This document shows, piece by piece, positions 1 through 63,000 of a stretch of DNA of 64,000 nucleotides. Position 1 is the stretch's first letter, and each line of letters opens with the position of its first letter. The translations under genes were made by a program, and so were the position numbers. Source of the stretch: Ignavibacteria bacterium (lineage in GTDB: Bacteria > Bacteroidota > Ignavibacteria > DATCTW01); NCBI GenBank assembly GCA_036567745.1, contig DATCTW010000018.1:194665-258664 (forward strand), given 5' to 3'. Below the pieces are notes generated by a model that made no database searches, was not told the DNA's origin, and was given only the letters and a program-made list of their open reading frames with translations.

Positions 1-2622
1 GAATATATTTTTGGTTGAAAAAATAATTTGCCCACCATCTGGCATGGCATCCCTTGCGTTTATTGCTAAATTTAAAAATGCATTTTGTAATAAGGTAGGA
101 TCCCCAATTACAATTGAATTTTTTGCATTAAAATGCCTTATTATTTCGATTTTTTTATCTATGCTTCTTTCTAAAAGACCTATTGCATCCTCAAGAGAGT
201 TATGTACATCTATTGGCGTTGATATTATTTTCCCTTTTCTTGCAAAAGCTAAAAGTTTATGTGTTAAATCAGCAGATTTCCTGGTTGTCTCAATAATCTT
301 TTCAGCATAATGATAAAGTTTTGAATCCTTATCTAACTTCCTGCTGAGCATTTCAGCATAACCCATAATACCACCCAGCATATTATTAAAATCATGAGCT
401 ATACCTCCTGCCAATTGACCTATCACATCCATTTTTTGTGTAATCTTTAATTGCTCATTGGCTCTTTCTATATCTGTAATATCAACAACAATATTTAATA
501 AACAGGGTTCTGAATTAATATTAATCAACATTGAAGAAAGCATTGAAATTCTTTTTTCACCTGATTTAGTTTTTGAAACAATTCTTACATTTTCAGCTTT
601 ACCTTTTCGTTTTATTTCAGATGCAATAATTTCATCTGCTTCAGAATATTCTTTGATACCTAATTCAAATGAATTCTTGCCAATAATTTCTTCTTCTGTA
701 AAACCACTTTTTTCAAGAAAGGCTTTATTTACTTCAATATAAGCACCATCACTTAACCTATTTATTGATATTGCAAAAGGATTTAGATCAAAAATAGTTC
801 TAAATTTTAATTCACTTTCCTGTAATTTTTTGTACGCTTTTTTCTTTTCTGTAACATCTCTTATTATTGCTTGAAGAAAAGTTTTATGTTTTAATTCCAA
901 CCTTAATAAACTTACCTCTGTATCAAAAACTTCTCCATTACTTCTTAAATGTTGCCATTCGAATATTGCTCTGCCTTCACTATAAGCCTTGTTTATCATT
1001 TCCCAACCTTTTATGTAAGAAGGTAGACCATCCGATTGAAATTCAGGAGAAAGATTTAATGGCGAATTGCCTATTATATCTTCCTTTGTCATTCTAAACA
1101 TCTCACAGGTATTATAATTTGCTTCTATAAAAATATCTCTATCAAGAATAAAAATTGAGTCATTTGAATTATCAAATAATTTTCTATATCTAAATTCTGC
1201 TTCTTCAAGATTCTCCTGATATTTCTTTTGTTCAGATACATCAATAAATAAAACAATCAGATTGTCTTTTACTAATTTATATCTGATTTCTATTGGTTTT
1301 GACGATCCATCTTTACATCTTATATCTACATTAAATGTTTTTGGAGGGGTGTTGTTTTTAATAGTATTTTCTACAGCTTCAAACCATTCAGATTTTATTT
1401 TTTCTCTATAATTAGGATCACTATATGCCTTAATCCACCAATCATCAACAGATTCAAAATCTTGTAAAGTATACCCAAAAAGAGTAGTAAAAGTTTGATT
1501 TAAATATTCTATACTATTATCACGATTAACAACAGCAATACCAACAGACATTACATCTAATAAATTTCTAATATAAGCATCGTGCTTTCTGAGTTCTTCT
1601 TCAATTTTTATTCTTTCGGAAATATCCCTTCCCACTATAATTAATATTTTTCTTGAACCATCCTCATTAAATAAAGGTATCTTTAACATATCAAAAATTA
1701 GAGTAGTGCCGTCTGGTTTTTTTATTATTTCATCATATCTTATTGCAGTACCTTTTAGCCATGCTTCAACATCGGATTTTTCACATTGTAAAAAAACATC
1801 CTTATAAAAACTACTTTTCTCAGCGAATTCTAAAGCTTTTTTACCTCTATAATCAATACCATCCAAATTAAAAACTTTTATACCATAATTATTAATTTCT
1901 AACCAACGTCCTTCACCATCCCTTATACACACTATATCCTGCATATTATTGATTATAGTTTCCAATCTTTCTTTGCTATTAATTAATTCAATATTTTTGT
2001 CAGACAATTCTTTTTTTGATCTTATTAATTCTTCTTTTTCCTCAAAATATTCAACTTGTTGCAAAGCAAATTTAAAGGTTATATAAGAAAAAATTGGGAG
2101 TGTGATTAGCCCTGATAGTGTATGTTTAAAAGCATAACTAATTGTTAAATGTCGCAAGTCCGGAAATACTAATCCTGCTAAAATTGTTGTTAAAATTGAA
2201 CTCGGAAAAATTATTATTGAAAGAACAATTAAGTAAAAATCAAGATTTTTCTTATTTATTTGATATATTTTTTTAATATAGATCGTTAAAGAAATTAATA
2301 GTAAAAAGAAAAATAAAAATGAAACAAAAGCAGAAAAATTAATAATTGAGGATAATGCATATAAACTAATTAAGGTAATAATTGAATTAATTAAACCGGT
2401 CTTATAACCATATAAAAACGTGCATAATGCAATTACTGTTCCCATTCCTAAATAAGCTTCATTTTTGTATAACTCAAATTGCAAGAGTAATAAGAAAACC
2501 GAGATTATTCCAAAACTAAAGCCAGTAATTAAATCAAGATAACCATAGTTTTTTGATTTTAAATAATAATAAAACCTGAGGAAAATAGACAAAAAAAGAT
2601 AAAAAACTGAGATAATAATCAT
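1..2622 (-). CDS. Multi-PAS sensor histidine kinase, partial (C-terminus lies beyond the window start). An N-terminal multi-TM domain is followed by several PAS domains, a HisKA H-box (AHDFNNML) and the start of a HATPase domain.
   Basis: I translated the minus strand by hand and found a continuous ORF from the ATG at 2622..2620 to position 1 with no stop. The hydrophobic N-terminus is followed by PAS-like repeats (e.g. ...GRDISERIKIEEEL..., ...IRDVTEKKKAYKKL...) and a histidine-kinase H-box 'IAHDFNNMLGGIMGYAEML'. The plus-strand track ORFs at 11..310, 458..742 and 867..1097 are antisense artefacts of this gene. Confidence 0.75.
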   Translation of the reverse strand, partial: MIIISVFYLFLSIFLRFYYYLKSKNYGYLDLITGFSFGIISVFLLLLQFELYKNEAYLGMGTVIALCTFLYGYKTGLINSIITLISLYALSSIINFSAFVSFLFFFLLLISLTIYIKKIYQINKKNLDFYLIVLSIIIFPSSILTTILAGLVFPDLRHLTISYAFKHTLSGLITLPIFSYITFKFALQQVEYFEEKEELIRSKKELSDKNIELINSKERLETIINNMQDIVCIRDGEGRWLEINNYGIKVFNLDGIDYRGKKALEFAEKSSFYKDVFLQCEKSDVEAWLKGTAIRYDEIIKKPDGTTLIFDMLKIPLFNEDGSRKILIIVGRDISERIKIEEELRKHDAYIRNLLDVMSVGIAVVNRDNSIEYLNQTFTTLFGYTLQDFESVDDWWIKAYSDPNYREKIKSEWFEAVENTIKNNTPPKTFNVDIRCKDGSSKPIEIRYKLVKDNLIVLFIDVSEQKKYQENLEEAEFRYRKLFDNSNDSIFILDRDIFIEANYNTCEMFRMTKEDIIGNSPLNLSPEFQSDGLPSYIKGWEMINKAYSEGRAIFEWQHLRSNGEVFDTEVSLLRLELKHKTFLQAIIRDVTEKKKAYKKLQESELKFRTIFDLNPFAISINRLSDGAYIEVNKAFLEKSGFTEEEIIGKNSFELGIKEYSEADEIIASEIKRKGKAENVRIVSKTKSGEKRISMLSSMLININSEPCLLNIVVDITDIERANEQLKITQKMDVIGQLAGGIAHDFNNMLGGIMGYAEMLSRKLDKDSKLYHYAEKIIETTRKSADLTHKLLAFARKGKIISTPIDVHNSLEDAIGLLERSIDKKIEIIRHFNAKNSIVIGDPTLLQNAFLNLAINARDAMPDGGQIIFSTKNIF

Positions 2623-2852
2623 AATCTTCAATACCAAATCAAAACCAAACATAAACACCTCTGAATATAAATCACTCAATCAAAACATAACAAATAATAC
2701 TGGAGATAAATTACAACATAATAGTTAATTATAATAACATTTCTTTTTAAAATCAAGTTCCTAACAAAAACAGTTGATTCAATCAAAAAAAGATACTATT
2801 TTTATTTCATCACTTTAATAACAATTACATTATTTTCTTATAGGGAAAGAAT

Positions 2853-11722: not shown

Positions 11723-13069
11723 TTAAATTTTATTATACTTTTTAATATAAGCATTTATATCAAATTTATTTTTACAACCATTGTAGCTCATATATCTGAC
11801 CTTACCGTAAACTTGTTTACTAAACCATGCCCTATCGTGCACTCCTCCAATACTCCAGGCAATTCCGGTATAACCATTGGGATCTCTTCCATCAAGCTCA
11901 TATTTATCATTAAGGTATATAGCTATTTCCTGAGCTTCTTCAGGTGAATTTGTCCACTCCAGAATTTTTTTTGCCCAATACATTCTCATATAGCCATGCA
12001 TTTTACCTGTAGTAATCATCTCTATTTGTGCGGCATTCCATAAATTATCATGAGTTCTTGCTTCTTCAAAAGTTGATAACGAATAAACATATTCTCTTTT
12101 ATCTTTTCTATGCTCATCAAGTGTTTTTTTAGCCCATTCAGGGAAACCATTAAAATTGTCGTAATCATTACAATAATAACAATAATTATCACTCAACTCT
12201 TTTCTTACAATAAGCTCCTCTAAAAAAGAATCCTTTGATTTATTATTAATTGGTAATTTCTTTATCTCATAGGCAACTCTCTGCGAAGATATTTGCCCAA
12301 AATGCAGATACGGTGATAAATTTGATTGAGCATTTTCATTTGGATCATTTCGAAAATCATCATAATTTTTTAACTTATTAGAAATAAAGTCTGATAATAC
12401 TTTTTTTGCTTGCTTCTCTCCGGGTAAAATCCAATCTATTTTGCTAATAGATCTATTAACAGGTAAATGTTTTATTATCTCATCCCAAATATATTCTTCC
12501 TTTTCTAAACTTAAATTAAAAGGATGTTTTTTTAGTTCAGGATAGTCAGTCAAAAAGTTATCGATTTGTTTCATAATCTTTGGTCTTAAGGTATAAGCAG
12601 CAAATTCCTGCTTATCTGTAGCTACCCATATTGGTACAATATTATGTGCATCTACCTCATAGAATGGAATCGAAATTCTATCAATAATTTTTTGTTTCCA
12701 TTCCCTTTTTATTTTCAAAGGATCAAAATCAGTAATTAAAATTGATGCATCTACTTTATTAATAAATTTGATTATTTTTTCTTCAGGTAATCCTCGTAAT
12801 AAGAAAAAGGGGATGTTTTTCTTTTGCAATTCAATAGAGCATTCTTCTAATCCTTTTATCATGAAATCAAATTGCCTCAAACTTGCACCCAAAAAACGGC
12901 TAACAAGACAAAATACAACAGCTAATGGCCTTTTTTTACTTATAGCTAAATCCTGTGCAAATAGTAATGCCCAATTATCACTTACTCTCTGATCTCTACT
13001 CATCCAGTAAATAATTGGTCCATTGTTCTCTACTCCCTCTTTTAAAAGCCTTGCTCTTTTATTTAGCAT
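11723..13069 (-). CDS. phr: Deoxyribodipyrimidine (CPD) photolyase, class II
   Basis: ATG start. Class II photolyase signatures: 'ELIVRKELSDNY', 'THDNLWNAAQ', 'MHGYMRMYWAKKILEW', 'GYTGIAWSIGGVHDR'. Confidence 0.8.
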   Translation of the reverse strand: MLNKRARLLKEGVENNGPIIYWMSRDQRVSDNWALLFAQDLAISKKRPLAVVFCLVSRFLGASLRQFDFMIKGLEECSIELQKKNIPFFLLRGLPEEKIIKFINKVDASILITDFDPLKIKREWKQKIIDRISIPFYEVDAHNIVPIWVATDKQEFAAYTLRPKIMKQIDNFLTDYPELKKHPFNLSLEKEEYIWDEIIKHLPVNRSISKIDWILPGEKQAKKVLSDFISNKLKNYDDFRNDPNENAQSNLSPYLHFGQISSQRVAYEIKKLPINNKSKDSFLEELIVRKELSDNYCYYCNDYDNFNGFPEWAKKTLDEHRKDKREYVYSLSTFEEARTHDNLWNAAQIEMITTGKMHGYMRMYWAKKILEWTNSPEEAQEIAIYLNDKYELDGRDPNGYTGIAWSIGGVHDRAWFSKQVYGKVRYMSYNGCKNKFDINAYIKKYNKI

Positions 13070-13688
13070 AAAGCCCCCCTGAAACCTCTAGCCAGTCTGC
13101 AATATTTTCTACAGCTTTATTTATGTTATTATCAGAAATATCAATTGTAATTTTATTTAATTTACTCTTAGCTACCAAATTTGTCATTATTTCCTGTTCT
13201 TTCACAAAAAGATCGAGATCATCATATTGTTTTGGGTTACCTGATATTTTCAGTCTTTCTTTTCTAGCTTCAACAAATGATTCTTTACTCCGATAGCAAA
13301 AAACTAATCTGAAACCCAAATCACACAATTTACATTCCAACCAATCAAAATTATAATCTTTATTATATTTCATCTTTTGATACATCATTGTAGATAGATG
13401 AAACCTATCTACAATCCATGAATAATATTTTTGAAGTTCGAATAGTTTTGCCCACGTTGCGTAAGTTTCCATTGCAAGATTTTCTTCCTCTGGTAAAAAA
13501 TTTATTAATCCTCTTCCCCACGGAATATTTGTAAAAGCACACCATTCCGCAGAAATAAGGGGTGAATGATATCTATATTTTCTTGGACCTACAATTCTAG
13601 GATGTTCATTTAATGCGAATGCAATATCTGTCTTGAAAGTTAATCGAGTACCTTCAAGTATAATTTTTGGACATAATTTTTTACCCAT
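13059..13688 (-). CDS. Hypothetical protein, co-transcribed with photolyase (overlaps the phr start by 11 bp)
   Basis: The track ORF starts at TTG (13787), and its N-terminal extension runs into the first repeat element. The internal ATG at 13688 is preceded by a GGAG RBS and gives MGKKLCPKIILEGT.... I recognise no family. Confidence 0.45.
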   Translation of the reverse strand: MGKKLCPKIILEGTRLTFKTDIAFALNEHPRIVGPRKYRYHSPLISAEWCAFTNIPWGRGLINFLPEEENLAMETYATWAKLFELQKYYSWIVDRFHLSTMMYQKMKYNKDYNFDWLECKLCDLGFRLVFCYRSKESFVEARKERLKISGNPKQYDDLDLFVKEQEIMTNLVAKSKLNKITIDISDNNINKAVENIADWLEVSGGLYAK

Positions 13689-13787
13689 TATACCTGCTCC
13701 ATTTATTAGAATAAATAAAAATAAATATCCTTTAAAATAGCAATTCAGATTATTATACATATAATTTTTTATGGTCAAATTTCTCAA

Positions 13788-14910
13788 GATACGTGTCAGG
13801 GCTACGCCCCTAAAACATTATTCTACAATTTTATCTACAAACATTTCGGTGCTACGCACCTTTTATTTTTACAAAACGGGAATGATTCGTTTGTATGAGG
13901 GGCAGAGCCCCTATATGTTTGTAGAAATGCAAACGAAATAATATAAAGCACCATAGGTGCGACATGTCTACAAACATTTCTGTGCTACGCACCTTTTTTT
14001 ACGAAACGGGAATGATACGGTTTGTATTAGGGGCAGAGCCCCGATATGTTTGTAGAAATGTGAATGAAAATAAATATAGCACCGTAGGTGCGACATGTCT
14101 ACAAACATTTCTATGCTACGCACCTTTTATTTTTACGAAACGGGAATACATTAACAACATTCAATTATATTTAGGGGCAGAGCCTCGATATGTCTGTAGA
14201 AATGTAAACGAAAACGTATCAAGCACCGTAGGTGCGATACGTTTCAGGGCTACGCCCCTAAAAAATCATTCTTGCTATTTTTCTACAAACATCTCGGTGC
14301 TATCGCACCTTATATTTTTACAAAACGGGAATGATACGGTTTGTATTAAGGGCAGAGCCCCGATATGTTTGTAGAAATATGAATTAAAACATATAAAGCA
14401 CCGTAGGTGCGACACGTAAATAAACGTGTCAACCATCTTATCTACAAACATTTCGGTGCTATCGCACCTTATATTTTTACGAAACGTGAATGATTCGGTT
14501 GTATTAGGGGCAGAGCCCTGATATGTCTGTAGAAATGCAAACGAAAACAGATAAAGCACCGTAGGTGCGACACGTATCAGGGCTACGCCCCTAAAAAATC
14601 ATTCTTACCATTTTATCTACAAACATTTCGGTGCTATCGCACCTTTTTTATTTACAAAACGTGAATGATTCAGTTGTATTAGGGGCAGAGCCCCGATATG
14701 TTTGTAGAAATATGAATTAAAACATATAAAGCACCGTAGGTGCGACACGTAAATAAACGTGTCAACCATCTTATCTACAAACATCTCGGTGCTATCGCAC
14801 CTTTTTTATTTACAAAACGTGAATGATTCGGTTGTATTAGGGGCAGAGCCCCGATATGTTTGTAGAAATGTGAATGAAAACAGATAAAGCACCGTAGGTG
14901 CGACACGTAT
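13788..14910 (+). repeat. Tandem array (array 1) of about 7 copies of a hairpin-dense repeat of about 130 bp, with two kinds of short palindromic linkers
   Basis: Unit consensus: CTACAAACATTTCGGTGCTAYCGCACC-TTTTATTTTTACRAAACGKGAATGATWCGGTTTGTATTA-GGGGCAGAGCCCCGATATGTTTGTAG-AAATRTGAATKAAAACAKATAA-AGCACCGTAGGTGCGACAYGT. Each unit contains GC-rich 5-bp stems with 3-nt loops (GGTGC-TAC-GCACC, GGGGC-AGA-GCCCC, GCACC-GTA-GGTGC). A longer inverted repeat CTACAAACAT...ATGTTTGTAG frames the central hairpin. Linkers are 'TCAGGGCTACGCCCCTAAAAAATCATTCTT...' or 'AAATAAACGTGTCAACCATCTTAT', where GACACG-TAAATAAA-CGTGTC is itself a hairpin. Units 3-4 plus linkers are re-duplicated as units 5-6 plus linkers, giving a higher-order repeat of about 300 bp. 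Confidence 0.9.
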
Positions 14911-14924
14911 ATTTTATTGATAAA

Positions 14925-14943
14925 TTTGACAAAATGTGTCAAA
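14925..14943. promoter_or_regulatory. Perfect inverted repeat TTTGACA-AAATG-TGTCAAA, a candidate operator or promoter element upstream of the DUF4373 gene
   Basis: It is seen directly in the sequence, 65 bp upstream of the ATG at 15008. TTGACA also matches a -35 hexamer. Confidence 0.4.
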
Positions 14944-15007
14944 CAAGATAAGAATTTATTTTTTATTTTATGCTCTGGTAAAATAAAAAAATATTACGGA
15001 GGGGATT

Positions 15008-42253: not shown

Positions 42254-45200
42254 TTACAAATCTATTCTTACACCTAATAACACTCTTCTTGGATTCAAGA
42301 AAAGAGGAGCCTGCCACCAACCGATATCAATATGAGATTTATCCCATTCACCCCATTTATCATCACCTTTTTTATCTCCTTCATTAAATGGTAGTTTTAA
42401 AGATGATTTGTAATTATCCAGCTGATTTCTAGTCATATTTCCAACTTCAAGCCTTTTTTGATTTAATAAATTTTGAACAGTTAAAACTACCTCTACATTA
42501 TAACCAGTAAACTTGAACAACTTTGAAGCTCTCATATCGAGATTAGAATAATCCACTATATCTAACCATTGTTGTTTTTTGATATCAGATTCTTGAGGAT
42601 TCCATAACATCTCTCCTCCATCCTGCCATTTGAAAAGGAAATTGACATAAATATCACCTAAAATATTCATATCAAAAAGTTTTGGACCCCAATCTGAAGG
42701 AGTTCTTAGATTTACATTTATATGAGCTCTGGGTAATGGTATTGTAGTAGTTAAATTAGCAGATCTTCTTTCATCAGATGCTTCAAGTTTATTTTCATAT
42801 ATTTTCTGTAAACCACTCTGGCCATAACTCTGTAACATATAATCATAGTTTGCCCAAAATGTAATCCATTTTCCAAAAGTTCTTTCAAATCTTAACTCTA
42901 CACCTCTTACATCTTTATATTTATCAGGAACGTAAGTTGTTACAATATTATCATGATAATAATTTATATAACTCTGACTGAGTGGTTGGTTACGAAAATC
43001 TTTATAATAGAATGCAACGTTAAATAGAAAGTTTTCTAAAAATTGCTGTTCATAACCAAATTCATAAGAAACAGTCCTTCCCATGCTTAAATTTGGATTA
43101 GGCAAAGTAACGGCTGAAGGATATACATTTAAATTATATAAAAATGATACAGGTGCTCTTTGATAAAAATGACCATAATTAAAATAAAGTTTACTTTCAG
43201 TAGTAATTGGGAAAGAGACTGACAATCTTGGTGAAATTTGCGCCTGAAGCTTATTCTTTTCACGAGGCCAGTTTGGTGGGTTTTCGAGCATATCTTTGTA
43301 AATTTGCCACCTTTCATAAGAGCCCCATCCACCAGGCAAATTCATATAAACCTTATTATAAAAATCAGAATAACTTTGATCAGGTGGATTAGTTACAATA
43401 AATCCCTTTTTATTTGGATCAAAAATATCAAGCCTAACACCAGCATTTGCTATCATTCCTTCAAATTCAATTTTATCTTGTAAGTATGCACCTAATTCAA
43501 TAGGTGTTACTTTATAATATTGCCAGGTATCTGTTGTCCACATTCTTTCTGATTGCAACCATGTACCACCATAAGTATATAGATAAGTGAGTTTGGCTGA
43601 GATACCTGCTTCAAATTGATTATGTTCACCAAGCTGAGAAGTAAAATCACTACTCAATTGTACTGTCCATGAATATGAGGAGTCGTCTCTTTGGGTTCCC
43701 CCATATAACCAGAACATGTTTAACTCATCTGTTGCCCAATTAGTTGAAGCGTTAGGAGTGCCACCATTAGGAACATTTAAGAATCTATAACCACCAATTG
43801 TAATCCATGCATCAGGTTTTGTTGTATCTAAAGAAAATGGTCTTAACTCATGATCTGTATAACCAAAATGTAAATTCACAGTGTAAAAAGAACTTGCTGA
43901 AAGAGTATGTGTAAACTTCACACCTCCAATTATATATCTCTGATCATAATATTGCAATCTACTCTTATTGAACATTCGATAGAAATTATCGCTACCAATA
44001 AGTGCAGCTTGTCTTTTTACTGAGGGTTCTGAATTACTTATAAAATTAAAACTTGATGATGGATCAACTAAAGTACCACCGTAATTAGTAGCGCTACCTT
44101 CATTAAGAGATGATATCTTTGCATACATACCATCGACAGATAATCTCATATTCGGAGAAAGAACACTGGTTAGCTTTAATTGAGTATTCCAATCTATATA
44201 ACTATCTCTTGGACCAACTGGAAAAGCAAATTGTGAATTCTCATACTTAAACCCTAAAAGAAAAGTAGTATTCCTAAAATATTCACCAAGTAATGGTAAT
44301 TCACCCCCTGGCAATGGACCACTAAGAGATGTTTCTATATAAATATCGGGTTTTTTCCCATAAGAATATTGGGGATGTCGCAATTTCCATAATTGTAATT
44401 TTTGTTCTGGTGTAAGTTTTGCATCTTTTGGTAAATCAGGATAGTTACCTGTTGAGGGATCGTTCCAACCCTTAAATCCCCAAAACTCTGGAGGTACAGC
44501 CAAACTATCCTCTTTAGTCTTAATACCATTCATTGCATATTTTCCTGCAAACACCTGATAAATTGGCGATTCATTACTATATGGATCTGTTCCAAAAAAT
44601 TTCTTTTTTGCAGTTGGTGTAATATCAACTTTTAGAGCAAAGTTATATTTATCTCTATTTCCTTCTTTTGTAACAACATTCAACAAACCCGATTGTATAC
44701 CACCATACTTAGCTTGAAAGCCACCTGTTAGAACTTGTAATTCCTGTATGGTTGTTGAGTTAAGAGATAAATATGAATTTTCACTTCTAGGATCTTGAAG
44801 AGAAATACCTTCAATACGAATGTCTGTTTCACGAATAGCGCCACCTCTAACACTAAGTCCATGCCCTTCGTTATTATCAACTAATTCAATACCCTTCAAA
44901 TTTCCGACAAATTCATCGACTCTAACAATAGGCACTTCAGCAATACGAGCTGTTTGGATAACTTCTTGTGTTGAGGCAACATCTGGTTTAATTACTTCTC
45001 TCTCATAAGTAACAACAATTGCATCCATTTGAACAGATGATGGAGTTAACTTAATATTAAGAGTAATGGTTCTGTCTGCATCAACTTGCACTTTTGCTTT
45101 AGTGTAAGTAGAATAGCCCACCATACTTGCCTTAACATTATAAAATCCTGGTGGCACATTAAGAATCGCAAAATATCCGTTTTCATTTGTAACAGCACCC

Positions 45201-45400
45201 AACTTTGGATTTTGAGCGTAAGGGTGTCCAGAAACCCAAACTGTATCAATCATTACGGTTACACCAATAAGTGGTTCATTTGTTTGGGAATCAGTTACTC
45301 TTCCGGAAATTTTGCCATTCCCAGAGTAAAGCAATTCAGGAAATAATAATGAAATAAAGGAAAGTAATAACAGGCAATAAAAGAAGTAAAACTTCTTCAT
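42254..45400 (-). CDS. TonB-dependent outer-membrane receptor (SusC/RagA-like) with an N-terminal carboxypeptidase-regulatory-like domain
   Basis: The track start is TTG (45412), and the ATG at 45400 is preceded by GGAGG. The CarbopepD_reg block reads 'GKISGRVTDSQTNEPLIGVTVMI...GYFAILNVPPGFYNVKASMVGYS'. A plug-like region ('LSVRGGAIRETDIRIEGISLQDP') is followed by a long beta-barrel. Confidence 0.7.
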   Translation of the reverse strand: MKKFYFFYCLLLLSFISLLFPELLYSGNGKISGRVTDSQTNEPLIGVTVMIDTVWVSGHPYAQNPKLGAVTNENGYFAILNVPPGFYNVKASMVGYSTYTKAKVQVDADRTITLNIKLTPSSVQMDAIVVTYEREVIKPDVASTQEVIQTARIAEVPIVRVDEFVGNLKGIELVDNNEGHGLSVRGGAIRETDIRIEGISLQDPRSENSYLSLNSTTIQELQVLTGGFQAKYGGIQSGLLNVVTKEGNRDKYNFALKVDITPTAKKKFFGTDPYSNESPIYQVFAGKYAMNGIKTKEDSLAVPPEFWGFKGWNDPSTGNYPDLPKDAKLTPEQKLQLWKLRHPQYSYGKKPDIYIETSLSGPLPGGELPLLGEYFRNTTFLLGFKYENSQFAFPVGPRDSYIDWNTQLKLTSVLSPNMRLSVDGMYAKISSLNEGSATNYGGTLVDPSSSFNFISNSEPSVKRQAALIGSDNFYRMFNKSRLQYYDQRYIIGGVKFTHTLSASSFYTVNLHFGYTDHELRPFSLDTTKPDAWITIGGYRFLNVPNGGTPNASTNWATDELNMFWLYGGTQRDDSSYSWTVQLSSDFTSQLGEHNQFEAGISAKLTYLYTYGGTWLQSERMWTTDTWQYYKVTPIELGAYLQDKIEFEGMIANAGVRLDIFDPNKKGFIVTNPPDQSYSDFYNKVYMNLPGGWGSYERWQIYKDMLENPPNWPREKNKLQAQISPRLSVSFPITTESKLYFNYGHFYQRAPVSFLYNLNVYPSAVTLPNPNLSMGRTVSYEFGYEQQFLENFLFNVAFYYKDFRNQPLSQSYINYYHDNIVTTYVPDKYKDVRGVELRFERTFGKWITFWANYDYMLQSYGQSGLQKIYENKLEASDERRSANLTTTIPLPRAHINVNLRTPSDWGPKLFDMNILGDIYVNFLFKWQDGGEMLWNPQESDIKKQQWLDIVDYSNLDMRASKLFKFTGYNVEVVLTVQNLLNQKRLEVGNMTRNQLDNYKSSLKLPFNEGDKKGDDKWGEWDKSHIDIGWWQAPLFLNPRRVLLGVRIDL

Positions 45401-45733
45401 AAAAACCTCCAATAAATGACCAAATATTCAAAATTATTTTTTCTGAAGAGAAAGAGGACTGCGAAAAAGAGGTTTTTCCTTTGCCTTAATAAAAAACCGG
45501 TATTGTATTTCTTGACGGCTTTGGATCGCGAACACCGCACATCCTTTTTCCCTAAAGGGAAGCATATTTGCTAGAAAGTATGAAGTATGGAATACCCATC
45601 ACTCATGCTTCCGTTGTGAAGGTAATAAAAAAAAATTCTTTTGTCAAGTAAAAAAACAAATTTTTTTATTTATAATTTTTTTAGAATTTTTCCGATTGCT
45701 TTATTTACATGGTACCCGGAAGAATTAATTATT

Positions 45734-46243
45734 CAAACATATCGGGGCTCTGCCCCTCACAATAATTAAAACATCTAGTTTTGTAAATACGAAAAGGTGC
45801 GTAGCACCAAAATGTATATTAACATGTCGCACCTACGGTGCTTGATATTTTTATTGTGTCATTTTCTACAAACATATCGGGGCTCTGCCCCTTACTATAA
45901 TTGAAACATCTTGTTTTGTAAATACGAAAAGGTGCGTAGCACCGAAATGTTTGTAGAATTATGATTAGATAAATGTTTAAGGGGCGTAGCCCTGATATGT
46001 ATATTAACATGTCGCACCTACGGTGCTTTAAATTTTTATTGTGTTGTTTTCTACAAACGTATCGGGGCTCTGCCCCTAAGGTATATGAAATGGCCTCGAT
46101 ACATTTGCATTACATTTATAATACCAAACAAAAAGGTGCGTAGCACCGAAATGTTTGTAGAATTATGATTAGATAAATGTTTAAGGGGCGTAGCCCTGGT
46201 ATGTATATTAAAGTTTTTCTACAAACGTATCGGGGCTCTGCCG
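45734..46243 (-). repeat. Tandem array (array 2) of about 4 copies of the same structured repeat family as array 1, in inverted orientation
   Basis: It contains the reverse complements of the array-1 motifs: ATATCGGGGCTCTGCCCC (= GGGGCAGAGCCCCGATAT), GGTGCGTAGCACCGAAATGTTTGTAG and ACATGTCGCACCTACGGTGCTT. The central segment differs from array 1 (TAGATGTTTTAATTATTGTGA in place of GGGAATGATACGGTTTGTATTA), so the two arrays are diverged sub-families. Confidence 0.85.
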
Positions 46244-46293
46244 TTAAATGTAATTGAACGGTAAGAAAGTAGCTGAAACAACCACTTATTATT

Positions 46294-49200
46294 TTATTCA
46301 CAACGTTTATTTAAAATATTATATACTACTTCAGATACTTTTGATAAATCAAGAGGTTTATCTAAAATATGGGAAAAACCAACAGAATATATATTTTTAT
46401 CCTGATAGTAACCAGACATTGCAACAATAGGAATATCTTTACATATTTTTTTGACCTCTGTGCACAGTTCTATTCCTGTCATTTCTGGCATAGTAATATC
46501 AGTAATAATTAAATCAAATTTTTCATCTGTAATTAATTTTAAAGCATCTAGACCGTTTTGAGCATTTTTTACTATATAATTTAAATCATCCAGATACTCT
46601 GTTAGCATAAATCTTATGCCCTCATCATCTTCAACAATTAGTATTTTCTGATTATTGCCAATAAATAATTCTCTTCTATCTTCATCTAAACTTTTATCTG
46701 AAGAATCTATAACAATAGGAAAATATATTTTGAATTCTGTGCCTTTACCTAATTCTGTATATAAATTAATAAATGCATCATTTTTATTAATATTATTTAA
46801 CACAATAGATAAACCAAGCCCTGTTCCTTTTCCTATTTCTTTAGTTGTAAAGAAAGGATCAAAAATTTTATCAATTATTTCAAGAGGAATTCCGCTTCCA
46901 CTATCCTTAATAACTAAAAGAGCATATTTACCGGGTTTCATAATTCCATTTTTTGTAATAACATCATAGGAAATATTTATTTCATCAGTTCTTATTTCAA
47001 TACTGCCTTTATTTTGAATGGCATCTCTTGAATTAATCACAAGATTCATTATTACCTGCTCAATTTGTGCAATATCAGCATTAATAATCAACTTTTTATG
47101 GTAAATATTTCTCTCTAATATAATATTTTCGGGAATAAGCCTTATCAACATTTTCCACAAATCATCAACAATTAAATTAAGGTCTATAATTTGTTTTACA
47201 ACCTGTTGCTTTTTACTGAAAGCTAAAATTTGTAGAATTATATTTTTCGCTTTTGAATTTGCCCCAACCAGAGCCTCAATGTATCTTTTATTATTTGTTT
47301 TACAATTCGAACATAATTTTCTTTCCAACAATTCAGTATTACCAATTAATACAGTTAATATATTATTTAAATCATGAGCTATGCCACCAGCTAATTGACC
47401 TACAACTGACATCTTTTCAGATTGAATAATTTGCTTTTCTAATTTTTTCCTTTCTGTAACATCCCTAATAAATCCTCCAACTCCAAATTTATTATCAATT
47501 AATTTTATTTTAAATTTTCTTACCTCAAATACTCTATCTCCAAAAGTTTCTTCAGTAATTACTACCCCATCACTTTCGACAGCTAGTTTATCACTATTAT
47601 AACATTGGTTTGCTTCTATTTCGGACATAAGTTCAAAATCATTTTTACCAATAATATCATCATAATTTCTGTTATATAAATCAACACCAGCATTATTAAT
47701 ATAAAGGTACCTAAAATCAGAATCTTTAAGAAGAACAATATCATTAGTTGAATTTAAAAATTCTCTGAATTGTCTTTCGCTTTCTTTTAAAGCCTTTTCT
47801 ACCTTTATTCTATATGTTACATCGTGAATAATTGAAAATAGATATTCTTTATCCTTAATAAAAATTGGTCCACTATAAACCTCAACATCTCTTAACTCAC
47901 TGTTAGAAAGCCTATGAGTAAAAAGTAAAAATCTCTTTTCTTTATTTTTGACAGCTAGCATTTCTTTTTTTATTACATCCTCAGTGGAAGCATTAATCTG
48001 ATAAATCTTCATTTTTTTCAATTCTTCTCTTGAATAACCATAAAAGGTACAAGCTGAAGGATTAGCATCTAAAATATCTCCGCTATCAGGATTAATCAAA
48101 AGCATAACTGAATAGTTGTTTTCAAAAATACTTCGATATCTTTCTTCACTTTCTTTTAAAGCACTCTCTGCAAATTTCTTTTCTGTAATATCTTCATAAG
48201 TACCAAGCACTCCGATTATTTTCCCTTCACTATCTTTTAATGGCACTTTACTTGTTCTTAGAAACCTTTTAGTACCATCAAAAATAATATGCTCTTCTTC
48301 ATAATTCAATTTTGGTGTATCATTCCCTATAACAAATTTATCATCTTCGATGAACATTTTAGCTACTTCTGGAATAACCGAATCATAATCACTTTTTCCA
48401 ATAATTTGCTCAGGGTCCTCAAATTTATAATCCTTAGCAAAATTTTTATTACATCCCAAATAGATAGAATTTCTATCTTTCCAAAATACTCTTACAGGTA
48501 TTGTATCTAATACCAATCTTAACATATTTTTCGATTCAAGTAATTCCATTTCAATTTTCTTTCTTTCAGTAATATCTCTTCCCACACCAATTATGCTGAT
48601 AACATTATTATGTTTATCTAATACAGCTTTATCTGCCCACCCAATCCATCTCCAGCCATCTTTTGTTAAAGCTCTTTGTTCAATATAACAAGAGTATGGA
48701 GGTTTATATAAATTTTTCATTTCCTCCAAAGTAAGTGCTAAATCATCAGGATGAACTAAAGGCATAAAAGTATTTCCTAAGAGCTCTTCTTCCTTTTTCC
48801 CAAACAATTGACAGTATGATGGACTTACAAATTCAAACTTTCCATTTGTATCAACTTTTACTAAAAGGTCTGTTTGATTATTTACAAGTAATCTGTATTT
48901 TTCCTCACTTTGTCTAAGTAATTCTTCAGCTTTATTTTTTTCTTGAATAAATCTTGCCTGTTGTACATTTTGTATAGCAAGTAAAGATAATTGCTTTGCT
49001 ATAAGGTGAAGAGCTTTACAGATCTTTTCAAATTGTTCTCGAGGCATTCGCGTAACTTTTTTTAGTTCTTCTCTAAACTTTTCTTTATCAGCACCAATAA
49101 CATCAGCATAATTTAATATAGTTTTTTCATCTATATTTTCATCTACTATTTGACCAATCAACCAATTAGCAATGTGATTATTTCCTACCATTATACTAGT

Positions 49201-50718
49201 TCCACCATCTAACAATCCACCACTAAGGCATGGTTGCATTTTATAACCATGAGGATTTATTTTACCAAGTTCTGCATCAGATTTATAGCAATTTTCTCTA
49301 CCTTTTTCAGTACCTCTAATAATATTTTCACAAAGATAAGAAAAATTACTTGGTTTTGTAATAGGTTTACCATCAGGATATGTTATAATTGATGCAACAC
49401 CAGTTGCAAAAGCAAAAGCATCCTGAATTTTCTGAATTTCCTCGATATCAAATATATCTTCAAATCTTATATCACCAATATCTGAAACAGGTTTAGTAAG
49501 TGCTACTAAACGATTTGCTAATTGTTCATTTAACCTTTTTATTTCATTTTCTGCTTTTTTCTTTTCGGTTATATCACGTACAATTGCATGAATATATTTT
49601 TTACCTTTCAGCTCAAAACAATTTAAGCTTACTTCAGTATCAAATAATGTTCCATCTCCACTTTTATGTTTCCATTCAAAATGTTGAGGAACGCCAGCTA
49701 TCGCCATTTCAACTAATTCTTTTCCTTTTTCAGCTGATTTTCTCCCATCTTCCTGGTATTCAGGTGAAAAAGTAAATGGATTAGAACCAATCATTTTTTC
49801 TTTTGAAGTTCTAAAAATTTTTGTAGCTGCTGTATTACAATCAACAAACACAATATCATCCATTATTAAAATTCCATCATCAGCAGATTCAAACAAAATT
49901 CTAAATTTTTCTTCGTTTTCCCTTAAAGAATTTTCTAATTCAATATGTTGAGTAACGTCATTTGCAACAGCATAAATTTTATCATTAATTGGATAAGAGT
50001 TCCACTCTATCCATTTATATGTACCATTTTTACATCTATATCTATTTAGAAATTCCAAGACTATTTCCTGATTTTTCAAATTTTCTAAAGCTTTTAAAGT
50101 TGAAGGGAGATCATCTGGATGAACAAAATCCAAAAATACAGCACCATCTAACTCTTCTTTTGAATAACCAAGAACCTGTTCCCATAAAGGATTTACTCTG
50201 ATAAAACTGCCAGAAGTATCTGCAATACACAATAACTGTAAAGAGACATTAAAAAATCTTTCAAATTCTTCAGTCTTTTTTTCTAAATCCTTTAAATTTT
50301 TTTTCTCTTCGGTAATATCAATATTTATACCATAAGCTACAGGTTTTTCCAAAACTTTATTTAAGGGTGAAAACAAAGTACGATAATATTTTACTTCGCC
50401 ATTTTTAACAACAGAATTTTCAAAGGATAGAAACTCTCCTGACAAAGCCTTTTTGTTTGTTTGTTCCCATTCTTCTGCCATTAATTTATCATCTAAAAAA
50501 TCTTTGGGTGATTCCCCTATATGATAACCCCAATTTTTAATTGAATATGAGTTCTGTAATATATATTTACCCTCTGAATCTAATGCCCAAATCTCAAATG
50601 GAATTTTATCGAGTATAGCTTTATAAAAAATTTCTTTTTCCTGATATTCTTTAACAACTTTTTTTAAATTAGAAATTTCTTCTAAAAGCTCGTTATTGGA
50701 ACTTTTATTTTTATCCAT
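46294..50718 (-). CDS. Hybrid sensor histidine kinase/response regulator with multiple PAS/PAC domains (1474 aa)
   Basis: ATG start. At least 6 PAS-like modules are present. HisKA reads '[21 protein letters not shown]'. HATPase reads '[10 protein letters not shown]...DSGSGIP...GTGLGLS'. The C-terminal REC reads '[14 protein letters not shown]...[17 protein letters not shown]'. Confidence 0.9.
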
Positions 50719-59818: not shown

Positions 59819-60041
59819 TATTCTATCCTTGCTTTAGATTTGATATAAACTCATTCTCTCAATAAATATAAAAAAAATGTTTTTTTTAATCAAGCTATCT
59901 TTTACTGTCAACAAAATTGATTCACCGAAAAATAAAATAATTAGACGATTTATTAAATAATTTACTTGAAATATTTTCAAAAAATCCTTAATATAACAGA
60001 TGTATTAATTTATTATTCATTCTAACAAAGAGGAGTTAATA

Positions 60042-63000
60042 ATGGAGTCTCAAATTGAGACAAATACTGATGTTTTTAATAATATTTTTAATTATTGTAA
60101 TTTACCCCTAATAATTTATAAACAAGAAACCAATTCACTTATTTGCAACAAAATATCTCTAAATTATTTTGGTTTTCAGGAAGATGAGAATAGCCTTTTT
60201 GAAGCAAAAAAAATAATAACTAATATCGAAGATCTAATAAGTAAAATCAATGAAAACAAAAATAATTTAAATGAAGATTTTGATATTACTTTAAATTTTA
60301 TATACAAATCAAATCAACAAGTAAGCATTAATACCAGAGTTTTTATTAATACTGGTTTTGATAACACCATACTCCTTATTCCTGATATTAATATTGAACT
60401 ATTTAGCAACGAACAAAAAGAGCTAATTCAAAATAATCTTTCATTAAAGTCATCAATATTAAATAAAGAAGAAGAAAGGTTCAATCTAATTTTAGAAAAT
60501 TTACCATTTCTTCTAATTGCAATAGATGAAAATGACAAATTATTATATGTAAATTCAAAATTTGAGAAATTTTTAGGATACTCTTTACTTGATTTATCTT
60601 TGACAGGCTTTATTTCAAAAATTCATCCTGAAGATAGAGAAAAATATAAAGAATTTATCTCTGATATTTCAATTGATAAGTTATCAAATGTCAGATTAGT
60701 AGAAAAATCAGGAAAAATTTTAAACACAAGCTTCAAAAAAAATACTTTTACTTTAAATGACAATTTACAAATTAAATTATTAATTGTAGATTTTGATAAT
60801 TCGACTCAGGAAATAAATTTAACAAATATTGAAAATAAGCTTATAGATTTAGAATTAAAAAATGAAGAGCTAAAGCATCTATTAGATTTATCAAACTCTG
60901 TTATAGATAATTCCCCTGATATTATTTTAGTTTATGATAATAATGGAAAATTGATTAAATACTCAAAAAATTCCAACCTTCTTAAACAATACTCATTCGA
61001 AGAACTTTCTACAATAAATAATATTCCATTTATTTCTTCAACAGATAAACAAGAAATTATAAAAAACATTAATAGTGAGAATTTTATAACTTTCAAAAAA
61101 AACGATGTAGTATTAAAAGATAAGGAAGGTAATGATTATTTTTCTATACTTAACGTTAAGAAAATAAATTATGATAATGAATATTACGTTTATTTTAATT
61201 TTTCTGATATAACAAGTTATAAAATAGAAGTAGAAAAGAATTTAAGCGCTGCTTTTAAAGGTGTGCTTTTTGATTACTATCCTGATATTACTATCCTTCA
61301 TAAAATTGATGGAACAATATTAGATGTTAATCACAAGTGTGAAGAAAGGTTAGAATATACACGAGAGGAAATAATTAATAAAAATATTTCAGAATTTGGT
61401 TTAATTTTAGATCAAAACCTATTCAATAATACAGAACCTCAATTAAAGCTTATTCATCACATAAAATCGAAATCTGGTAATTTAATAGATGTGAAAAGTG
61501 ACTCGAATGTAATAGAGTTCAACAATAAAAAATACGTATTAAGTGTATTAAAAGAAGTAACAACTCCAAAGCAAAGATTAATCGAAAGCAGAATACTGGA
61601 AAGTTCTTTAGGCCAATTATTGAACTTTATGAATATTGGTATTATTATTTTCAATCAGGAAGGATACCTTACTCACTTATCTTCTAATTGTGAAACTTTA
61701 ACTGGTATAGAAAGCACAGAATGGGATGTTTCTTCTCCATTCCTCGTCGATAAAATTGCCCGTGAAGATTTCATAATATTCAGACAGAATATTGAAAGAG
61801 TATTTAAAGGTGAATACTTAAAAGATATATTAATTGTATTTAAAAACAAGGACGAGAAGAAGAAAGAACTTAAAGGCAGTTTTTTACCTGTACTTAATGA
61901 AGATGGTTATGTAAGTGAGGTAATGCTTGTACTTCAAGAATATACGGATTTTGATAAAGAAAAAAGATTAAGCAACTTCTATGAACTCATTTTAGATAAT
62001 GCACCAATTGGTATAATTACCTTTGATACAAATGGAAATTACACTTCCGTTAACGAAGAATTTCTTAAAATGCTTGGATATGAATACAAAAGAGAAGAAG
62101 TACTAACATGGAATTTATATAACCTGATGGATAAAGATAAAATATTACCTGGATTTGTTACCGCACTAAACGGAGAAGTTGTTGATTATACTCGTGATTA
62201 TATGCCTACACCATCAAATCAAAAATTTTCTTTTTATCAGTCCTTTGCTCCACTAAGAGATAAGAATGGGAACATTATAGGAGTTCTTGGCCTATTAAAT
62301 GAAATTACAGATAAATCTATTATTCCTCAAAATATAATTGAAGCAGAAGAAAAGTTTAGAAAAATATTTGATTCATTAGAAGAGTGTGTAATATTATTTA
62401 AAGCAACAGGAAAAATAATTAATGCTAATAAAGGTGCTTTTTTATTATTGGGCGATCCACCTCAACACATAATTAACAAAGATATTACAGATTATTTTGC
62501 AGATAATCAGAGTGAAGAATTTGAAGATTTTTTGTTTAATTTACATTCTTTTGGGAATGCTAATATTAAAACAAAAATCATTAAAAGTAATGGTACAACA
62601 TTTGACGCTGAAGTGTATGGTAAAGGTTTGGAAATATCGGGAATACAACATTTCTTTGTAGTGATAAAGAAAATTGAAATTTTAGAAAAAAAACCAGTAG
62701 AAGAAATTACTACAATTACATCTCAGAAAGAAAAGGAAACAAATGGTATAGATTCTTTCAATTTTCTTAAAGATTTCGATGAAGGAATAATTATTACTGA
62801 TTCAGCTATTGAACAAACAATTTTCATCAACGATAAAATTAAAGAGCTTTTTAATGCTTCAATAGATGATTTTCATTCAAAAGGAATTTTGCCAATTGTA
62901 ACCAAAGAGATGGATGAAAATTCAAAATATTTTTTCCAGAAAAATATTGAACTATGTAAATCATCTCAATTAGGTATAAAGCCATTTGAAATAGATTTTA

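Follow-up and report, generated by a model that had tools for sequence, protein, structure and literature searches.

Repetitive extragenic palindromic (REP) sequences and bacterial interspersed mosaic elements (BIMEs) of Enterobacteria are short extragenic palindromes of about 35 nt with a conserved single-stranded tail, GTAG, that abuts the stem. Their palindrome types alternate in orientation, are joined by a few alternative linkers and form tandem clusters whose copy number varies between strains, and the gene of their Y1/HUH transposase, the REP-associated tyrosine transposase (RAYT; TnpA-REP in E. coli), is itself flanked by such repeats (Ton-Hoang et al., 2012; Messing et al., 2012, PMC3479197). 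In Pseudomonas fluorescens SBW25, the mobilisation of inverted REP doublets with a spacer, termed REPINs, is attributed to a single-copy transposase that acts in trans (Bertels and Rainey, 2011, PMC3116915; PMC3337134). A further group of Y1 transposases, termed TIRYT, has 'double palindromic' terminal inverted repeats, which occur as single, dimeric or grouped families as well (Di Nocera et al., 2013, PMC3733652). Finally, Bertels et al. described a RAYT-like 'IS200 group 3' and a RAYT group 4 that is common in Chlorobia (PMC5581495). Here we analyse a stretch of 64,000 nucleotides (the window) from contig DATCTW010000018.1 of an Ignavibacteria bacterium (assembly GCA_036567745.1), which contains two intergenic arrays of hairpin-rich tandem repeats, termed array 1 and array 2. 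These arrays are probably clusters of non-autonomous elements of REP, REPIN or BIME type that belong to a Y1 (HUH, IS200-like/RAYT-like) transposase system of an Ignavibacteria-like bacterium.

The seven units of array 1 are 131–184 bp long. Tandem Repeats Finder (TRF) returns, for positions 13834–14910, periods of 131, 158 and 333 bp with scores of 494–1282. The array has the coordinates that a preliminary description of the window gave, and its unit starts agree with the number of about seven units named there. The same description called the array near-perfect, which is overstated, as TRF reports 84–92% matches and the 333-bp block is 82% identical in an ungapped comparison. The higher-order block duplication that it noticed is real: part of unit 3, unit 4 and part of unit 5 recur as part of unit 5, unit 6 and part of unit 7. 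Each unit starts, after an optional linker (A or B), with the A-arm, TCTACAAACAT followed by TTC, and the hairpin P1 (GGTGC-TA(T)C-GCACC), which is followed by a run of T. A variable segment of 25–63 nt (V1) leads to the hairpin P3 (GGGGC-AGA-GCCCC), which is followed by GAT and by the B-arm ATGTTTGTAGA, the complement of the A-arm. An A-rich variable segment of 21–24 nt (V2) and the hairpin P4 (GCACC-GTA-GGTGC), followed by GACAYG, complete the unit. Besides the optional linker there are thus three hairpins per unit, all GC-rich with a 5-bp stem and a 3-nt loop. Consecutive units are joined directly, by linker A (..ACGTGT-CAGGGC-TAC-GCCCC-TAAAA..) or by linker B (GACACGTAAATAAACGTGTC). The three hairpins and both alternating linkers reported before are all found in array 1. 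The long inverted repeat that was said to frame the three hairpins is present as well, as an 11-bp repeat (CTACAAACAT/ATGTTTGTAG), but it encloses only the first two hairpins and leaves the third outside. Within the window, GGGGCAGAGCCCC occurs 10 times (0.04 expected) and GCACCGTAGGTGC 9 times (0.00 expected), far above chance. Compared to shuffled sequences, single units fold better on either strand, the z-scores being –4 to –6.4 for RNA and about –4.8 for DNA.

Each hairpin bears a tail on its own strand. The shared form of this tail is ACRTNTC, which for P1 and P3 is extended to YTACAAACATNTC, and the consensus of the extended tail is (C/T)TACAAAYRTT(T)C. Read with their tails, P1 on the plus strand is TCTACAAACATTTC-GGTGCTACGCACC, P3 on the minus strand is TCTACAAACATATC-GGGGCTCTGCCCC, P4 on the minus strand is ACATGTC-GCACCTACGGTGC and linker A on the plus strand is ACGTGTC-AGGGCTACGCCCC. 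The tail TCTACAAACAT is common to P1 and P3, on opposite strands, and the two copies together make up the 11-bp inverted repeat, so that the P1 element and the P3/B-arm element form an inverted, REPIN-like doublet. Linker A and P4 are the outer pair. With two REP-like elements on the plus strand (linker A; A-arm and P1) and two on the minus strand (P3 and B-arm; P4), the unit is therefore a nested inverted doublet.

Table 1. Positions of the repeat elements and of other features in the window, counted from its first nucleotide.
Feature	Position	Strand	Remarks
Array 1	13788..14910	+	5' linker, then seven tandem units; each unit has an nhmmer E between 1e-33 and 1e-37
Linker-A hairpin CAGGGC-TAC-GCCCC with 5' tail ACGTGTC	13797..13810; also 14245-14258, 14578-14591	+	First copy marks the 5' beginning of array 1
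REP-like element of unit 1: tail TCTACAAACATTTC and P1 (GGTGC-TAC-GCACC), then T-run	13834..13860	+	Copies open the units at 13967, 14098, 14282, 14441, 14616, 14774
Inverted REP-like element P3+B-arm of unit 1	13899..13925	-	Minus strand reads TCTACAAACATATA-GGGGC-TCT-GCCCC here, whereas most other units have ATC; further copies from 14030, 14174, 14349, 14507, 14682, 14840
Hairpin P4 with tail GACAYG	13948..13966	-	First copy is GCACC-ATA-GGTGC; minus-strand P4 is ACATGTC-GCACC-TAC-GGTGC; further copies at 14079, 14223, 14398, 14556, 14731, 14889
Linker-B palindrome GACACGTAAATAAACGTGTC	14411..14430; second copy 14744-14763	.	P4 tail fused to linker-A tail, hairpin of linker A lost
Higher-order 333-bp block, 2.2 copies (block duplication)	14171..14910	+	92% matches with indels (TRF)
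Array 2, same family, ~3.5 units	45728..46258	-	Between PAS sensor kinase gene (46294-50718) and TonB-dependent receptor gene (42254-45412), both minus
Lin1244_N (DUF4373) gene, 408 aa	15008..16234	+	PF14297, E 4.5e-14; downstream neighbour of array 1, not a demonstrated partner
Divergent 242-aa open reading frame beside class II photolyase gene	13059..13787	-	Weak thymidylate-kinase-like match, nothing else
17-bp palindrome TTGACA-AAATG-TGTCAA	14926-14942 (feature 14926-14955)		Just past array 1
Leader between array 2 and TonB-dependent receptor gene	45413-45727		~300 nt; 25-bp tandem repeat at 45614-45667
Multi-PAS sensor histidine kinase gene	1-2679	-	
Multi-PAS sensor histidine kinase gene	46294-50718	-	1474 aa; PocR domain and receiver domain; ends 36 nt from array 2
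Multi-PAS sensor histidine kinase gene	60009-63998	+	

Two open reading frames (ORFs), 13964–14374 (plus strand, 136 aa) and 14275–14559 (minus strand, 94 aa), lie wholly within array 1. Since the lengths of the units are not multiples of three, both are almost certainly spurious calls of the kind an annotation pipeline could make.

The family is dispersed. Array 2 had been missed in the preliminary description, and a 28-nt pattern derived from P3 and the B-arm matched 13 metagenome contigs (L001–L013) from activated-sludge and digester samples. Three of the 13 carry the loci of the window itself, from the same strain or from sister strains (L003, 98.7% identity; L012, 91%; L002, 92.5%) and the others represent other sites, which adds at least eight further distinct loci, all of them intergenic. 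Their neighbours encode NuoA, NDH-2, a NUDIX hydrolase, a heptosyltransferase (GT9), an outer-membrane protein together with Sua5, and a helix-turn-helix protein, and one is a cobalamin-riboswitch/phosphatase locus; array 2 neighbours a TonB-dependent receptor gene. The family is a mosaic with a fixed order of modules, optional linkers and partial units. Arrays usually start with ACRTRT-CAGGGCTACGCCCC, i.e., linker A, which opens four arrays at other loci or positions, and they end variably past the B-arm, past P4 or past P1. These variable ends argue against the insertion of one discrete element with fixed ends. Most contigs that carry an array terminate within it. When 185,579 species genomes were searched for the exact pattern, none matched, the source species being absent from that set or masked, and the pattern was likewise found neither in viral contigs nor in plasmid and phage collections.

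At the cobalamin locus (L010), a cobalamin riboswitch (587–765; 116 bits) is situated upstream of a His_Phos_1 (CobC-like) gene. The array lies about 100 nt from the riboswitch and is directed away from it.

The arrays change between strains. In the 92.5%-identical strain (L002), the orthologue of array 2 has seven P3/B modules compared to four in the window, and within it a tandem duplicate of 183 bp (L002 2107–2475) is 100% identical, which indicates a very recent gain of a unit or possibly an effect of the assembly. The difference in module number and the perfect duplicate together show that arrays change by tandem duplication and deletion. Between strains the array is 85% identical, compared to 91–98% for coding sequence, and a conservation of the array above that of its flanking genes was not seen. 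The adjacency of array 1 to the Lin1244_N gene is retained in strains of 88–98% identity. Moreover, independent assemblies from several metagenomes reproduce the arrays with their flanks, which disposes of the objection that the array might be a misassembly.

To compare copies, we extracted 34–35 complete units, allowing up to 2–3 mismatches per module, so that the identities of the modules are somewhat inflated. Hairpins and arms are 92–96% identical between copies, compared to 60% for V1 and 68% for V2. Copies equal to the consensus, loops included, make up 71% for P1, 71% for P3, 75% for P4 and 77% for linker A. Many units keep the B-arm without the A-arm, and the long closing stem is thus not the feature under constraint. 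Within the family, the modules are conserved as sequences, with no indication which strand matters.

The link to a Y1 transposase comes from relatives. TRF was run on 80 loci of relatives that were fetched via the photolyase gene. At one of them (L070, from an Ignavibacteria metagenome-assembled genome, MAG), a tandem array alternates between CAATCCC-ATC-GGGATTG and CAACTCC-GTA-GGAGTTG, each of which is followed by AACATTTGTAAC, and its spacers recur. This array directly adjoins the gene of a 156-aa Y1 (IS200-like) transposase (PF01797, E 3e-24), which has 1693 homologues at E ≤ 1e-10, several of them labelled Ignavibacteriaceae and most on contigs of about 1 kb. Nine homologues were examined together with their flanks. 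The repeats beside them are related but not identical to those of the array family and contain a quartet of hairpins, often in two or three tandem copies: H1 is GTTC-AACTCC..GGAGTT, followed by about 25 nt; H2 is (C/T)TACAAAYRTTC-AATCCC..GGGATT, followed by 40–60 nt; H3 is ATTCCC..GGGAAT-AAAYRTTTGTA(A/G), followed by about 24 nt; and H4 is AAYCCC..GGGRTT-GAA. H1 to H4 map one to one on linker A, the A-arm with P1, P3 with the B-arm and P4 with GAC, and the spacers (about 25, 40–60 and 24 nt) correspond too.

As a signature we used TACAAAYRT, followed within at most 5 nt by a perfect hairpin with a stem of at least 5 bp and a loop of 3–4 nt. In 79 control loci (1.23 Mb) it gave five matches, all of them trivial A/T hairpins and none GC-rich, whereas it occurs 1–13 times per Y1_Tnp locus (L070, L095, L097/98, L099–104, L110–112, L113/114 and L115) and at every locus of the array family. 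At least seven independent Y1_Tnp loci of Ignavibacteria type have the tail, the order of the hairpins and the spacing in common. Nine different stem sequences across lineages are all complementary, beside an invariant closing C-G pair. This shows that across lineages it is the hairpin as such that is conserved, and the covariation of the stems fits hairpins of DNA or of RNA equally well. Each related transposase is found in one genomic context across many samples and therefore behaves as a single-copy resident gene and not as a multi-copy insertion sequence. The preliminary description had proposed a lineage-specific repeat of REP/BIME type; the dispersed, extragenic and mosaic nature of the family, its inverted pairs of hairpins and its match to the Y1-flanking repeats bear this out. 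The alternative that it offered, a reiterated small-RNA or protein-binding module, gains no support from the Rfam searches or from covariation within the family.

Three further loci of the comparison are described for their own sake, two of them Y1 transposase loci whose repeats bear other tails. At a Y1 transposase locus in DNA of 29.9% GC (L105 902–2991), the repeat with its tail reads TATATATC-TTCCC-TAC-GGGGA and lies beside a DDE transposase. At the Y1 locus of Ignavibacteria bacterium GWB2_35_12 (L107 2700–3900), four tandem hairpins are found on each side in inverted orientation, which is the classical RAYT layout. An unrelated 125-bp tandem repeat without obvious hairpins (3.5 copies, 95% matches) is located at a contig end of an Ignavibacteriaceae MAG (L064 20834–21265).

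A mechanism can be proposed by analogy with TnpA-REP of E. coli and TnpA of IS608 (PMC3479197; PMC3733652). The small hairpins would extrude on single-stranded DNA, and hairpin and tail would be recognised in trans by a Y1 transposase of this genome, which would cut or rejoin the DNA nearby. Such events would seed copies in intergenic DNA. Unequal recombination between units, or replication slippage, then expands and trims the arrays, and this expansion and trimming is the part of the scheme that is shown. The YTAC with which the tail begins resembles TTAC, after which IS608 cleaves; we take this as a lead only. Secondary effects on the transcription of neighbouring genes are plausible, as P1 with its T-run resembles a terminator.

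Several observations weigh against assigning the arrays to such a system. No Y1_Tnp gene was detected by tblastn with the Y1 transposase in the window or in the 13 contigs. The likeness to the transposase-flanking repeats consists of tail motif and architecture and is not homology that nhmmer detects: a profile of the unit found no match in the 80 loci of relatives. Five of the related transposases score 21–35 bits against the RAYT model NF047646 (cut-off 80), and the label 'RayT' that JGI attaches to these proteins is a COG name, no more. The same five reach 54–85 bits against the IS200 model of NCBI (cut-off 55), at or above the cut-off in four cases. For two relatives the context extends over 20 kb, and in both of them the hairpins are confined to about 700 nt around the transposase gene; spread across the genome is thus seen only for the present family. 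Moreover, the tail is not the GTAG/CGTC tag that abuts the palindrome in the described REP super-families (PMC3733652). No such tag abuts a stem here; GTAG (or CTAC) occurs about 9 nt from the stems of P1 and P3 and in the loop region of P4. Finally, the arrays point in the same direction as the neighbouring genes in seven out of eight informative cases (roughly p = 0.04, the cases not being independent), which is the one observation that a selfish-DNA reading does not predict.

This bias in orientation would be explained, together with the retained A-rich and T-rich variable segments, if the quartet were an undescribed, Ignavibacteria-type class of REPIN-like elements with a single-copy IS200-like partner, domesticated independently, and had been exapted as directional punctuation of transcription, i.e., as terminator and/or promoter cassettes or as small-RNA genes. 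We hold this extended reading as a tentative and rather unlikely one.

It is improbable that cassettes account for the arrays altogether, each unit being a small-RNA gene or a promoter-terminator cassette and the arrays punctuating or regulating the transcription of their neighbours. In this reading, a promoter would overlap the P3/B module, with TATGTT as –10 box and, in the commonest variant, TTGTAT 17 nt upstream, and the transcript would comprise V2, P4, a linker and the A-arm and would end at P1 and its U-run. A T-run does follow P1 in every unit and a T-rich tail follows P4 on the other strand, and these combinations account for 15 terminator-like sites where 1.1 are expected. Despite their varying sequences, V2 and V1 are biased in composition: A makes up 63% of V2, and T makes up 74% of the first 10 nt of V1. 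Several arrays stop right past the P3/B module upstream of a gene, and TATGTT is also the –10 box of a bona fide-looking promoter in the window. The co-orientation with neighbouring genes counts for this reading too. However, the element that resembles a –35 box is found in only one variant of V1 and is missing from the others, and a promoter scan yields fewer sites than in shuffled sequence. A formal covariation count, one of the checks proposed in the preliminary description, finds 96.4% of 884 pair cells paired, with stems that hardly vary and so say little for or against an RNA, no double (compensatory) change within the family and a score no better than that of shuffles. Changes in the stems are disruptive in 21 cases, produce G-T on the plus strand in 16 and on the minus strand in 15, and are compensated in one, so that substitutions tolerated as G-U show no asymmetry between strands. 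Searches of the window and five related loci against Rfam 15, at gathering and at permissive thresholds, gave no family match, the best sub-threshold hits being plant microRNA models at chance level (E ~0.2), and a known Rfam family, which had been named as a possible objection, is therefore not at hand. The cassette reading also leaves the match to the transposase-flanking repeats unexplained; such a role could still be a secondary, exapted one.

The hairpin modules might instead be duplex binding sites of a host protein (a nucleoid-associated protein, gyrase or a regulator), which would make the arrays elements that structure or insulate the chromosome independently of any transposase. In E. 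coli, IHF, gyrase and Pol I are known to bind BIMEs. The present modules have the form of near-palindromes of 13 bp, and their conservation at the level of sequence, which includes the loops, is in line with such a role. However, the stems differ across lineages and yet stay complementary, indicating that hairpin structure is recognised and not a duplex sequence, and the association with Y1 transposase genes is left unexplained. We therefore consider duplex binding quite improbable.

A role of array 1 as iteron-type origin or operator for its downstream neighbour is very unlikely. The window's largest array lies directly upstream of the Lin1244_N gene and is co-oriented with it, an adjacency that, as mentioned, is retained between strains, and this could suggest an iteron-type origin or operator of a replisome-organiser-like gene in a plasmid or prophage remnant. 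The preliminary description had placed array 1 between a divergent ORF next to the class II photolyase gene and a replication-initiator-like gene. The flanking genes are as it described them, but the relevance of the latter is contradicted by dispersal: the same repeats occur at nine or more other loci, beside nuoA and the genes for NDH-2, the NUDIX hydrolase, the heptosyltransferase, the outer-membrane protein, Sua5 and the TonB-dependent receptor, among them housekeeping genes. Moreover, the genes of the window are chromosomal in kind (serine dehydratase, class II photolyase, glycosyltransferase, NamZ and proteins with type IX secretion tails), no cas, transposase, phage or plasmid genes are present among about 45 ORFs scanned, and the family pattern has no phage, plasmid or viral-contig match.

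That the arrays are CRISPR-like or an assembly artefact can practically be dismissed: conserved blocks do alternate with variable segments, and such repeats can collapse in assemblies, but the variable segments come in homologous variants shared between loci, four different conserved hairpins take the place of one repeat, no cas gene is present among the about 45 ORFs scanned, and an artefact is contradicted by the independent assemblies. The preliminary description had rejected CRISPR already, as the variable segments are not unique.

Two other candidates were rejected. A Bacteroidota-type promoter (TAnnTTTG) in the P3/B module is not enriched upstream of the genes of the window, which have Shine-Dalgarno sites and TTGACA/TATAAT-like promoters. 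A miniature inverted-repeat transposable element of a DDE transposon does not fit either, as the arrays do not end at fixed unit boundaries, no target duplications were seen and the A-arm is often missing.

The surroundings of the arrays are as follows. At E ≤ 1e-5, among 5.8 billion proteins, the Lin1244_N protein has only relatives that are 88–98% identical (P0001–P0007); their contigs are all 3.3 kb or shorter, presumably cut off by the array. Judged from these matches, the protein is lineage-specific outside its N-terminal domain. The Lin1244_N gene is preceded by a sigma-70-like promoter (TTGACA-18-AAGAAT), with which the palindrome just past array 1, a possible operator, overlaps. On the other side, the true start of the 242-aa ORF is probably the ATG at 13689. 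The best relatives of the neighbouring photolyase are found in Ignavibacterium and Ignavibacteriaceae MAGs, at 64% identity, from which the organism is probably an Ignavibacteria-like member of the FCB group. The leader next to array 2 contains GC-rich, structured-looking segments and is 92% conserved in the sister strain L002; it has no match in Rfam even at E = 1. The three multi-PAS sensor histidine kinases are very large, and two of them run past the ends of the window.

If the arrays are read, as we prefer, as clusters of Y1-linked REP/REPIN-type elements, repeats of this kind are now also known from sludge and digester communities, in an uncultured Ignavibacteria-like lineage, and their form there is unusual: the hairpins measure 13 nt and come in fixed quartets, the arrays exceed 1 kb, the tail is not GTAG, and the related transposases are nearer to IS200 than to canonical RAYTs. 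In practical terms, the arrays break short-read assemblies, which leaves the MAGs of the group fragmented, they may lead annotation pipelines to call spurious ORFs, and their changes in copy number between strains could serve as markers for typing. They also offer a compact substrate for the study of hairpin and tail recognition by IS200-like transposases. No new category of biology is opened by them.

Pneumococcal BOX elements, the Neisseria intergenic mosaic elements (NIME/dRS3) and Correia elements are, like the present family, intergenic mosaics in which variable or optional modules stand between conserved palindromic ones; co-transcription is frequent, and signals that resemble promoters or terminators can be present. 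They have no sequence relationship to the family, and if a mobilising enzyme is linked to them at all, it is a different one. The ends of IS200/IS605 elements such as IS608 and their gene-less derivatives (palindrome-associated transposable elements, PATEs) have sub-terminal hairpins, recognised on single-stranded DNA, and a short conserved sequence 5' of the hairpin, and their transposase family, PF01797, is that of the relatives' transposases, most of which match the IS200 model at or above its cut-off. Unlike multi-copy insertion sequences, the related transposase genes are found in one context each. TIRtrons, the elements of TIRYT, resemble the family in having two palindromes per end, transposase-less dimers of ends and a tag other than GTAG, but they belong to other species, their sequences are different and the arrays described here are longer (PMC3733652). 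With the REPINs of SBW25 the family shares the inverted doublet with its spacer, a spacer more variable than the REPs, and a dominant 'master' sequence accompanied by decayed copies. Whereas REPINs are mostly dispersed singlets or short clusters, the doublet is here nested in a second inverted pair (linker A and P4), and most copies belong to long tandem arrays. Finally, of the REP/BIME and RAYT system described at the outset, the tailed extragenic palindromes, the alternation of palindrome types, the alternative linkers, the tandem clusters and the strain-dependent copy number have their counterpart in the family, and the transposase gene flanked by repeats has one in relatives. The differences are that the palindromes measure 13 nt instead of about 35 nt, that the tail, (C/T)TACAAAYRTT(T)C, is about 9 nt long and takes the place of a GTAG abutting the stem, that four different hairpins form a fixed quartet, and that the related transposases fit the IS200 and not the RAYT model. 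With some unusual anatomy and an orientation bias that selfish DNA does not predict, the arrays are a lineage-specific case of a known kind of bacterial repeat and not a new system.

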